Shown here: positions 54,001 to 57,000 of the stretch, piece after piece
Layout of the letters: every line of letters begins with the position of its first letter
Position numbering within the stretch: position 1 is the stretch's first letter
DNA from: a virus
Taxonomy: Duplodnaviria > Heunggongvirae > Uroviricota > Caudoviricetes
DNA: 64,000 nt
Virus record (IMG/VR): IMGVR_UViG_2897352509_000011
Direction: 5' to 3' (one strand)
Program-made: the position numbers

Positions 54001-57000
54001 GCACTTGAAGTTGTTAGGGCTGACCCAGCCTGCTGTTTCTTTAGGTAAGAGAAAAGAGATTTAGGAGATGAAAGGTCGCAGAGGTGCGGCCTTTTTTATT
54101 GAGAGTGGATCTTGAACGGAAATTCTCAAGACTTGAGTCTTGCATGCAAATCAATTCCTGGATAAACTCGATCTGAGTCAATAACTTAGAGAGAGAGCAA
54201 ATGGCAAAGTCAAACGTTAGCGTGCAGGCATTCAAGGACTTCCTTGAAGAGCTTATGTCGCTGAACATAATGAAGGAGGCCACCGCTCGAAATTTAAAAA
54301 ACTCATCCGCTCGCCTCTTAACGGTAGTCCAAGAAGAGGAAATGGGTGATGTTACTCAGCTTGATGTGAATGAGCTTGCCGAGCGATACATCAACGCAAC
54401 TGAGCCGAAGCCTAGCGACAGCAGCATTACTGCATATAAAAGCCGCATGGAAAGTGCAATCAAAAAGTTTGTAGCTTTCCAGTCTGGTGAAGAAATCCCA
54501 TACACTCCGATTGACAAAGAATCCAGTGAGGAAAAAGATTTGACTGGCGAACCAACAAAAGTCGAAGGCAAGGCTAATGCACTTCATACCTATGATCTTC
54601 CAGTAGTTCTTCGACCTGAATCAGGGGTTACAGTAACGATTAAAGGCATTCCTAACGATATCACAAACGAAGAAGCCGAACGCATCTCTTCAATTCTGAA
54701 GGTTTACGTTCGGCCTCAATAATGCAAAAGCATTCAGCACAATGTCCAACTCCCCAGTCCGACATTGATGCTGTTTAACCAGAGCCTCCAAAAGGAGCCC
54801 TTGTTAAGGTACACAATATTTGCGATGTAACCTTAGCGCGTCTGGTACATTTTTTCAAGCGGTTGTAGGGCTGCCGCCAATATGAGAAAACACAGATGTC
54901 TACATACAATTTGAATGACCAATTCGATCGAGAAGTTCATGTGAATGCCTATGAACGGATAAGGCATGGAAATCTTGAACATGTGTGTGAGCATTATCGC
55001 TCAAGGCCACACCGCTAATCATCAACCCGGCCTCCATGCCGGGTTTTCTTTTCCTCTCGCCCAAAAAAACACATAACCAATTGTATTTATTGGAAAATAA
55101 ATAGATACAACTCACTAAACAACGCAATTCTGATCTCTCCTTACATCGCCGAGGCAATACACCCACGCTAAAAAACAATACTATTAAATACAAAGCGTTG
55201 TAAAAAAACGCCCCGTTTTAGAACAAATTGTATTGACCAAGTGAAGTACATATCGTACTATTTAACCATCAGCAGGACGCTGGAAGCCAAATGGAACAGA
55301 CTGGCAGGCTCTTTAAACAACGTCGACTCTCGACTACGTGGCTGAAAAGCCAGATCACCCAACCACATAAGCTGTGGGATGCAATGCCGAAGCAACCGTC
55401 TCAGGAGGAGCTTCGAGATTGCATCGCCAAAGTTTATTCGGGAGGAATCTATGTCCAGAAAAACAGAATTTAAAGGCACCGCAGCTTCTCGCCGTAGAGC
55501 TCGTCGCGCAAACCTGCAAAGTCAGGAGGCGATTAGCTCCGACAAACTACACAGGCCAACCCCATCACGAGTGGTCTTACAATGCAAACGCAAACCAGCA
55601 ATGAGAGCAGAAGTAATAACACTGACAACGTTGACCAGAAAATATGAAGGCTCAACTTGTCTTCCAAATGTAGCTCTTTACGCGGCAGGCTACCGTAAAT
55701 CCAAACAACTGACAGCAAGATGACTTGTGTTGGTCGCCAGAAAATGAAATTAGGCAGCAAACCACTTATTTGAGGTGATATATGGAATTTCATGAAAGTG
55801 CGATTTGTGATTTTCGCGCTAACGCAAATTCAGTAAAACCACAGCCAATTGCAGTTCTTTTTAAAACAATGGGTGCGTGGGCTGTTTTATGCTTCGCCGC
55901 TGACGACACTGACGCAAGAATGGCAATAGGACAAGAGATGGAGATGGACCCGACAAACGATGAATTCATAATTTATGGCGCTCCATCTAATTACTTACTT
56001 GATACCTGCAACATTTACAACAAGGCTGCCTGATGGTGGCCTTTATTTTTGGCATAAACAACAGAATAAACACAGCACTGTGTATTCATTCCAACGAGTG
56101 AATACACGGAGCAATGTCGCTCGTAACTAAACAGGAGCCGACTTGTTCTGATTATTGGAAATCTTCTTTGCCCTCCAATGTGAGGGCGATTTTTTATCTG
56201 TGAGGATATGAACAGATGTCAAACATCAAAAAATACATCATTGATTACGACTGGAAAGCATCAATAGAAATTGAAATCGACCATGACGTAATGACAGAGG
56301 AAAAACTTCACCAGATTAATAATTTCTGGTCAGACTCTGAATACCGACTCAATAAACACGGCTCTTTATTAAATGCTGTATTAATCATGCTGGCGCAACA
56401 TGCTCTGCTTATAGCAATTTCAAGCGACTTAAATGCATATGGTGTTGTGTGTGAGTTCGACTGGAATGATGGAAATGGTCAGGAAGGATGGCCTCCAATG
56501 GATGGTAGCGAAGGAATAAGAATTACCGATATCGATACATCAGGAATATTTGATTCAGATGATATGACTATCAAAGCCGCCTGAGCGCGGCGTTACCGCA
56601 TACCAATAACGCTTCACTCGAGGCGTTTTTCGTTATGTATAAATAAGGAGCACACCATGCAATATGCCATTGCAGGGTGGCCTGTTGCTGGCTGCCCTTC
56701 CGAATCTTTACTTGAACGAATCACCCGTAAATTACGTGACGGATGGAAACGCCTTATCGACATACTTAATCAGCCAGGAGTCCCAAAAAATGGATCAAAC
56801 ACTTATGGCTATCCAGACTAAATTCACTATCGCCACTTTTATTGGCGATGAAAAGATGTTTCGTGAGGCCGTCGACGCTTATAAAAAATGGATATTAATA
56901 CTGAAACTGAGATCAAGCAAAAGCATTCACTAACCCCCTTTCCTGTTTTCCTAATCAGCCCGGCATTTCGCGGGCGATATTTTCACAGCTATTTCAGGAG

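Follow-up and report, generated by a model that had tools for sequence, protein, structure and literature searches.

What does the gene lodged between the repressor and antiterminator genes of a Shiga toxin (Stx) phage do for the lysogen that carries it? The question is raised by a 64,000-nucleotide stretch of Caudoviricetes DNA (IMG/VR virus record IMGVR_UViG_2897352509_000011; hereafter, the window), in which an open reading frame (ORF) of 173 amino acids (aa) with an ATG start lies between cI and N (Table 1). An ORF call and domain matches in the flanking genes confirmed its place on the cI strand, as described in an earlier note made from the window's sequence. That note had also called the gene unrecognised, which it is not: it is ECs1184 (ORF23) of the Sakai prophage Sp5, VT2-Sakai orf22 and also ORF b63, labelled 'hypothetical' in every annotation and appearing in two papers. 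The locus was already on record and its puzzling genetics already published, and no new locus is described here. New are the domain assignment, the boundaries of the surrounding cassette and the comparison of its alternative cargoes, a DUF3024 pseudogene, and the size and distribution of the ECs1184 family, including a variant coupled to a membrane protein. At a probability of about one half, we read ECs1184 as a non-catalytic nucleic-acid-binding protein, with DNA as its most likely ligand, that is made in the lysogen and acts as a blocker or repressor.

ECs1184 lies in the genetic-switch region of Stx2a, Stx2c and Stx1 phages of E. coli O157:H7, and it is the lysogen stability of Stx phages that sets Shiga-toxin output. 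Mondal et al. (2016) used sacB allelic exchange in a K-12 lysogen to remove the unknown Sp5 genes in frame and without leaving a marker, and only ORF21/ECs1180 (83 aa, just after N) and ORF23/ECs1184 resisted deletion (PMC5155283). The authors, who found no conserved domain in ECs1184, wrote that its deletion seems lethal and proposed a role in stable lysogeny; the construction step that failed is not stated in the study (PMC5155283). In a paper on RhsFI, native ECs1184 was quantified by TRAPP mass spectrometry in uninduced enterohaemorrhagic E. coli (EHEC) Sakai (PMC7618764). The protein is thus detected in uninduced cells, and spontaneously induced cells may contribute to the signal. Our literature search returned no paper beyond these two that names ECs1184.

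The cassette between cI and the tIMM-like terminator

The interval at 53600-55500 is 100% identical in VT2-Sakai (Sp5), Nil2 and the Morioka Stx1- and Stx2-converting phages, as well as in the Stx2c phages 2851 and 1717 and in the PA series. ECs1184 itself occurs at an identity of at least 99% in 234 of 5426 complete E. coli genomes, mainly of O157:H7. Both cI and N lie on the strand equivalent to the leftward strand of lambda, and in the Sakai chromosome the order is N (ECs_1181), ECs_1184 and cI (ECs_1185). We determined the breakpoints of the segment by blastn against lambda and against the prophages of UTI89, STK78-E and TUM3755, whose cI and N are identical or nearly identical to those of the window. 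CI is identical over 231/231 residues in UTI89 and STK78-E and over 229/231 in TUM3755 (221/231 in a further prophage, 14EC047), and N of all four prophages is identical to that of the window at 89-90 of 90 residues. Nucleotide similarity nevertheless ends at 53697-53699, the cI stop codon, and restarts at 55020-55024. Since lambda matches the window on both sides of this gap, at 53289-53695 (93%) and at 55024-55139 (87.5%), the segment between them corresponds exactly in position to rexAB.

The other prophages carry different genes in this slot, and 14EC047 carries none (Table 1). Cargo is therefore present or absent between conserved genes of otherwise near-identical phages, as in a moron, and the segment is a swappable, terminator-bracketed cassette holding ECs1184. 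The known cargoes (rexAB, PDC-M24A/B, PDC-S43/DUF3024, HicA/DUF1902 and gipd474 of Gifsy-1) are interchangeable among phages of one immunity type, and because the UTI89 pair corresponds to the candidate PDC-M24A/B and DUF3024 to the candidate PDC-S43 in PADLOC, defence-type cargo appears to gather in this slot as in a hotspot. The NYN gene also matches a PADLOC model for candidate defence genes. The argument from the rex position, made earlier from the window by itself, is thus borne out by comparing the cI-N interval across UTI89, STK78-E, TUM3755, 14EC047 and lambda. One Salmonella orthologue of ECs1184 was found beside differing cI, cro and replication alleles. As a side observation, the prophages with window-type CI and N and with other cargo, or with none, make up a ready natural series for studying the effects of slot cargo.

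Like ECs1184, rexA-rexB of lambda lies in the cI orientation, upstream of OL/PL and between homologous flanks (the 3' end of cI and the tIMM region). The two differ in that ECs1184 resembles neither RexA nor RexB in sequence or fold and is a single soluble protein, whereas lambda Rex consists of a sensor and a channel with four transmembrane (TM) segments; moreover, rexAB is co-transcribed with cI, whereas ECs1184 forms a terminator-insulated unit of its own. No Pfam, PHROG or PADLOC match linked ECs1184 to Rex proteins, and the cassette holds no gene for a membrane protein.

ECs1184 is a real gene under selection. Its dN/dS is 0.26 against the Salmonella orthologue and 0.22 against that of Proteus, indicating purifying selection, and these values, together with conservation across genera, rule out a spurious or decaying ORF. 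We also counted in favour of a selected gene that ECs1184 was kept intact, at an identity of at least 99%, while the adjacent DUF3024 gene decayed. This decay was read from an alignment to the 95NR1 gene and a three-frame translation; in strain 95NR1 itself, an intact DUF3024 gene stands beside an ECs1184 ORF identical to that of the window at the nucleotide level. Phage SH2026Stx1 and prophages of Morganellaceae likewise have an intact DUF3024 gene at this position, and the intact protein matches the PADLOC candidate PDC-S43 (E = 5e-42).

The 5' edge of the ECs1184 module is a terminator-like hairpin (-15.9 kcal/mol, z -4.6; 0/200 shuffles equally stable), noticed before and upheld here by folding and by conservation: it is 92% identical in Proteus and 86% identical in Serratia prophages, at the same place relative to the ECs1184 orthologue. 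Judged from its sequence, this element would terminate the transcript of cI and of the former DUF3024 gene, and the pseudogene appears to be co-transcribed with cI as far as the hairpin. At the other end, the hairpin at 55024-55045 (-14.3 kcal/mol, z -5.3) is homologous to the lambda region just past rexB, the tIMM position. The upstream hairpin, the leader and the ORF travel as one across genera, with similarity halting precisely at the ECs1184 stop codon, and wherever the loci compared carry additional cargo (DUF3024 or a 345-aa protein), it sits between cI and the upstream hairpin.

Within this insulated unit, a candidate promoter resembling sigma-70 sites precedes the gene. In seven homologous loci such a site ends 28-42 nt upstream of the ATG, and the sites of Proteus, Serratia, SH2026Stx1 and Yersinia phage YP3 match 8-10 of the 12 consensus positions. 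A ribosome-binding site of its own, which had been claimed for the gene, is indeed present and conserved in orthologues, as is the CAATAACTTAGAGAG block around it. PL cannot transcribe ECs1184, because OL and PL lie downstream of it. A matrix derived from the six CI operators in the annotation, themselves scoring 14-21, gave no CI-operator-like site at 53700-55060, near or inside ECs1184. We infer from these elements that the promoter is probably constitutive and independent of CI. The expectation that the gene is expressed in lysogens thereby gains indirect support, from the two terminators, the promoter-like sites in seven loci, the lack of CI-operator-like sites and the published detection of the protein (PMC7618764).

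Other regulatory elements were sought in the same interval. A palindrome that overlaps the -35 element could, speculatively, be an operator: its arms are kept and its spacer is changed in Salmonella (CAAGAC-CCGA-GTCTTG), and 6-bp arms alone are not beyond chance. Searching the non-coding parts of the interval for structured RNA with Rfam at E<=1 gave only a chance match to GadY (20 bits against a gathering score of 45), the ECs1184 leader folds no better than shuffled sequences (z -0.1), and no repeats or arrays of binding sites beyond chance were found at 53650-55300. Separately, CATAACCAATTGTATTT at 55072-55088, between the tIMM-like terminator and OL, scores 12.6 with the CI-operator matrix and may be an extra weak operator downstream of the cassette.

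Predicted fold and relatives of ECs1184

As had been described, the protein is acidic (isoelectric point, pI, 4.85; 29 D+E against 21 K+R) and lacks TM segments (the highest Kyte-Doolittle mean over 19 residues is 0.72). Sequence searches gave few leads. PHROG 2602, the phage-protein family of ECs1184, matches it over its full length (E = 3.5e-102), with a function-less label that adds no mechanism, and phrog_36396 covers the C-terminal module. There were no matches in NCBIfam, PADLOC or PDB sequence searches (in PADLOC-DB 2.0, none at E<=1 for either ECs1184 or the 40-aa ORF downstream of it), and no direct sequence homology to solved structures was found. The only hint came from a sub-threshold match to Phage_int_SAM_1 (E = 0.047).

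An AlphaFold2 model built on 26 homologues takes this hint further. In the model, an N-terminal domain of four helices (residues 8-21, 26-40, 56-66 and 73-94; pLDDT ~90) is followed by a disordered linker (102-127) and by a beta-hairpin and helix at the C terminus. In the comparison of the model with known structures, the figures listed were 8.6 for 3nrw, 7.2 for IntI4, 6.8 for the core-binding (CB) domain of lambda Int (2oxo), 6.6 for XerA, 5.8 for XerH, 5.6 for XerD, 5.0 for MrpR and 4.6 for SroF; a fold search of BFVD gave nothing at E<=0.001. A set of 93 diverse relatives gave 26 sub-threshold matches to Phage_int_SAM models (best E = 3.6e-4), and no other family recurred. Structure prediction thus identifies the N-terminal 100 residues as a CB (SAM-like) domain of the tyrosine-recombinase type, in a protein for which the earlier note had found no motif it could place.

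Compared with the CB domains of tyrosine recombinases (lambda Int ~75-160, XerC/D, IntI4 and XerA/XerH; Pfam Phage_int_SAM_1/3/4/5/6), ECs1184 lacks the catalytic and arm-binding domains and has a C-terminal beta-beta-alpha module instead; none of the Pfam SAM-like models reaches its gathering score on ECs1184, and the protein of the Sp5 clade is acidic. The catalytic domain PF00589 (R-K-H-R-H/W-Y, with its tyrosine nucleophile) had no match in ECs1184 or in the 93 relatives, and since the protein also ends at residue 173, ECs1184 is no recombinase. There is precedent for recombinase-derived, non-recombining DNA-binding regulators of lysogeny in MrpR (YopR; Bacillus phage SPbeta) and SroF (phi3T). 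MrpR, however, retains the whole two-domain recombinase fold (~320 aa) and is a master repressor, whereas ECs1184 has the CB part only and coexists with a classical CI.

In complexes of Cre, XerD and lambda Int, helices B and D contact the DNA. Family-wide, the near-invariant residues of the N-terminal domain of ECs1184 are F14, T28, K33, D50, R62, S75, Y79, K80, S81, R82 and F90, and the polar ones among them cluster at the starts of helix 2 (T28, K33) and helix 4 (S75, Y79, K80, S81, R82), which by analogy would correspond to helices B and D. The C-terminal module has near-invariant residues of its own (P134, R138, P151, D153, L154, E158, A159 and K/R161). The linker is basic in 79/93 family members and acidic in the Sp5 clade. 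An RRM-like assignment of the C-terminal module was rejected, the single profile hit behind it (E = 0.9) being insignificant.

When 1.84 billion representatives were searched with a profile, ECs1184 fell into a wider family of 652 clusters at E<=1e-3, or 241 at E<=1e-10, with clusters counted at 50% identity. Nearly all of them are 160-200 aa long and match over their full length, and none carries a Pfam assignment or an informative name. Close relatives (41-83% identity) occur in Enterobacterales, and every such locus we checked (Salmonella, Proteus/Providencia/Morganella, Serratia and SH2026Stx1) has the gene on the cI strand, with cI and N on either side. Yersinia phage YP3, a Mu/P2-like myovirus, carries a homologue (40% identity) 92 nt downstream of xis-int (L023, 1616-3531; L numbers are our labels for compared loci), at the end of the lysogeny module and convergent with gin, where int is an Arm-DNA-bind_2/Phage_integrase gene; lysogeny modules outside the lambdoid group therefore also carry members of the family. 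At greater distance (22-31% identity), relatives stand alone in chromosomes, with long intergenic flanks and no recurrent neighbour; they were found in Mesorhizobium, Devosia and other Alphaproteobacteria, one planctomycete and one cyanobacterium.

A different arrangement was detected in eight gammaproteobacterial loci (L049-L052, L054, L057, L058 and L060; chromosomes of Halieaceae, Lysobacterales, Xanthomonadales and Aliikangiella), where the family gene is followed directly by a gene for a conserved 196-201-aa protein with two N-terminal hydrophobic segments. The overlap between the two genes is 1 base in L060 (4974-5528 and 5528-6127) and 14 bases in L057; in L049 and L051 a single base lies between them. 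From this spacing the pair looks like a two-gene operon, absent from the prophage and alphaproteobacterial members. The two-TM partner has no Pfam match, and neither it nor one gammaproteobacterial homologue of ECs1184 matched any PADLOC model at E<=0.01. In prophages, by contrast, no conserved toxin or partner gene was found beside ECs1184 orthologues, and the small ORFs 113-174 nt downstream of them differ by clade (phrog_21154, phrog_33859 or a zinc-ribbon ORF). Without a conserved adjacent partner, and with most relatives solo, the family does not have the make-up of a type II toxin-antitoxin system.

Candidate roles in the lysogen

The reading we favour assembles these features as follows. 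ECs1184 would be an autonomous cargo gene (moron) of the swappable cI-tIMM cassette, and its two insulating terminators and probable CI-independent promoter would allow it to be made while the prophage is repressed. The product would be a 'half recombinase': its CB domain would use helices B and D to bind nucleic acid, most likely DNA, and a disordered linker connects this domain to a small beta-beta-alpha module with a probable role in oligomerisation. Its action would be that of a blocker or repressor and not enzymatic, and would benefit the lysogen; its target may be the DNA of an incoming or competing phage, or a lethal function of the resident prophage. Several observations weigh against such a protein. 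The CB assignment draws on a predicted structure and on sub-threshold hidden Markov model matches, and an hhalign comparison of the family profile with one lambda-type integrase was not significant, its aligned stretch falling within the CB region. The protein of the Sp5 clade is acidic, with a charge of -4.5 on its N-terminal domain, which is unusual for a DNA binder; the candidate promoter of the window is weak, at 7/12 matches; the failed deletion (PMC5155283) fits poorly with a dispensable cargo gene; and most relatives are solo chromosomal genes outside prophages, so that the family is not phage-specific. These points notwithstanding, the proposal turns a 'hypothetical protein' with no conserved domain into testable hypotheses: a CB-type DNA binder, the bounds of a cassette, a candidate promoter and operator, and a candidate membrane partner in other bacteria.

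Dedicated anti-phage defence or superinfection exclusion is a tentative alternative, in which ECs1184 would sense or bind a component of the infecting phage and block that phage, alone in prophages and with the two-TM protein as effector in some gammaproteobacteria, much as the sensor RexA works with the membrane protein RexB. The company the gene keeps speaks for this idea: the slot is shared with rexAB, PDC-M24A/B, PDC-S43, an NYN nuclease-like gene and a HicA pair, another gene of a lambdoid immunity region (gipd474 of Gifsy-1) is a proven defence gene (PMC12724215), and the family has the sporadic distribution of an accessory gene, with eight loci in which the two-hydrophobic-segment protein adjoins or overlaps it. 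Yet no PADLOC model matches ECs1184 or the partner, ECs1184 contains no enzymatic or effector domain, and the alphaproteobacterial members lack a defence-island context; a defence gene would also be expected to be deletable, and the deletion failed (PMC5155283). Were ECs1184 a defence gene, it would add a non-enzymatic mechanism based on a recombinase domain to prophage immunity and give a widespread uncharacterised family its first function.

That same failed deletion is the foundation of the proposal by Mondal et al. (2016) that ECs1184 is needed for the viability of the Sp5 lysogen, as a maintenance or addiction factor that silences a lethal CI-independent prophage function or stabilises repression, so that its loss kills or induces the cell. 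ECs1184 was one of only two undeletable ORFs in a systematic K-12(Sp5) series (PMC5155283), it is intact beside a decaying DUF3024 gene, and a toxin-antitoxin pair (HicA) fills the same slot elsewhere. We consider this role unlikely. Prophages with identical CI, Cro, OL/PL and N lack the gene, and 14EC047 lacks any cargo, so this immunity system does not need ECs1184; no conserved partner gene accompanies it in prophages, where the small ORFs downstream belong to different PHROGs, and most relatives lie outside prophages. As for the deletion itself, the failing step is not specified (PMC5155283), and both ORFs that resisted it border PL-N, a region in which cis effects, or toxicity of the cloned arms or of altered terminators, are plausible. 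If the gene were nevertheless needed for lysogen viability, it would be an unrecognised control point of toxin-phage induction.

A combined version, in which ECs1184 is a DNA sensor or blocker built on a recombinase CB domain that serves as a CI-independent guardian of the Sp5 lysogen (by silencing or addiction) and acts with a two-TM effector in some gammaproteobacteria by Rex-like abortive infection, seems to us very doubtful. If true, it would mean that the major Stx2a and Stx2c phages of O157:H7 carry a lysogen-protecting protein of a mechanistically new class, with ECs1184 as the first characterised member of a family of ~650 clusters.

Finally, we find it highly improbable that ECs1184 is an RNA-binding regulator acting post-transcriptionally or on host genes (lysogenic conversion). 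The protein does appear in the UV-crosslinked, RNA-associated EHEC proteome (TRAPP), where its enrichment fell just short of significance (false discovery rate 0.065; PMC7618764), and the I-x-G-I-P-x-D-I-T-x-E-E-A stretch of the C-terminal module superficially resembles the beta1-alpha1 segment of an RRM, at an E value that is not significant (0.9). However, tagged ECs1184 expressed from pBAD24 in Sakai gave a PNK signal equal to that of the sfGFP negative control, leading the authors to describe it as 'not a strong RBP' (RNA-binding protein), and the same TRAPP data set was enriched for DNA-binding proteins, phage CI among them (PMC7618764). No Rfam family was found in the interval. A non-catalytic, lysogen-made binder of DNA remains the reading to which we give the greatest weight.

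Neighbouring genes in and around the cassette

The interval between cI and N, taken in the earlier note to hold one ORF, also contains the DUF3024 pseudogene, a 40-aa ORF, a second terminator and OL/PL (Table 1).

Table 1. Features of the cI-N interval and cargo of the equivalent slot in related phages. Coordinates are positions in the window unless a compared locus (L number) is given.
Feature	Coordinates	Strand	Details
cI repressor gene	52998/53004..53699	+	Peptidase_S24 and HTH_3 domains; left flank of the cassette
Cargo cassette, 1.3 kb	53700..55020	+	runs from the base following the stop codon of cI up to where the tIMM-like terminator begins; from blastn breakpoints
DUF3024 pseudogene	53709..54048	+	two 1-bp frameshifts and an in-frame stop relative to the intact 95NR1 gene (L024, 2538-2879)
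Intrinsic-terminator-like hairpin and U tract	54070..54097	+	stem 54070-54080/54085-54095; 5' edge of the ECs1184 module
Palindrome CAAGAC-N4-GTCTTG	54127..54142		overlaps the -35 element; single exact copy in the window
Candidate sigma-70-like promoter	54140..54168	+	TTGCAT-17 nt-TAAACT; 7/12 consensus matches, weak
Ribosome-binding site GAGAGAGAG	54189..54197	+	purine-rich, ahead of the ECs1184 ATG; conserved in orthologues
ECs1184	54201..54722	+	predicted CB domain ~1-100, disordered acidic linker 102-127, beta-beta-alpha module 128-173
40-aa His/Arg-rich ORF, last cassette gene	54896..55018	+	phrog_21154, E = 5e-8
tIMM-like terminator	55024..55054	+	stem 55024-55031/55038-55045, U-rich tail; right cassette boundary
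OL operators and PL	55186..55261	+	mapped from the AP005153 annotation; promoter scan (TTGACC-17-TACTAT); operator matrix
N antiterminator gene	55451..55723	+	PF25694, E = 3e-32; ECs_1181; right flank
Slot cargo, UTI89	L028, 1340-2646		185-aa protein and DUF1828 protein; PADLOC candidate PDC-M24A/B
Slot cargo, STK78-E	L025, 2131-2484		gene fragment and NYN-domain gene
Slot cargo, TUM3755	L029, 1472-2064		DUF1902 and HicA
Slot, 14EC047	L026		no cargo; cI joined to window position 55170
Slot cargo, lambda			rexA-rexB

The 40-aa ORF stops 5 nt short of the tIMM-like terminator. It has relatives in Salmonella (95% identical) and in SH2026Stx1 (gp19, ~45% identical), each ~173 nt past the ECs1184 orthologue, and unrelated small ORFs take its place in Proteus and Serratia. 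A 53-aa ORF annotated on the opposite strand (VT2-Sap22; 54833-54994, -) is probably a shadow of this gene.

An extra gene, which the window lacks, lies between the ECs1184 orthologue and PL in Salmonella (L017/L018, 5861-6064, -) and in Serratia (L008, 6871-7059, -). It encodes an acidic protein of 62-67 aa assigned to phrog_3946, with no Pfam match, whose likeness to AriR/YmgB-type connector proteins was judged by eye.

Directly downstream of N, ECs1180/ORF21 (55782-56033) belongs to phrog_2471. STK78-E has no ECs1184 but does have an equally long homologue of ORF21 after N; the two ORFs are therefore no obligate pair.

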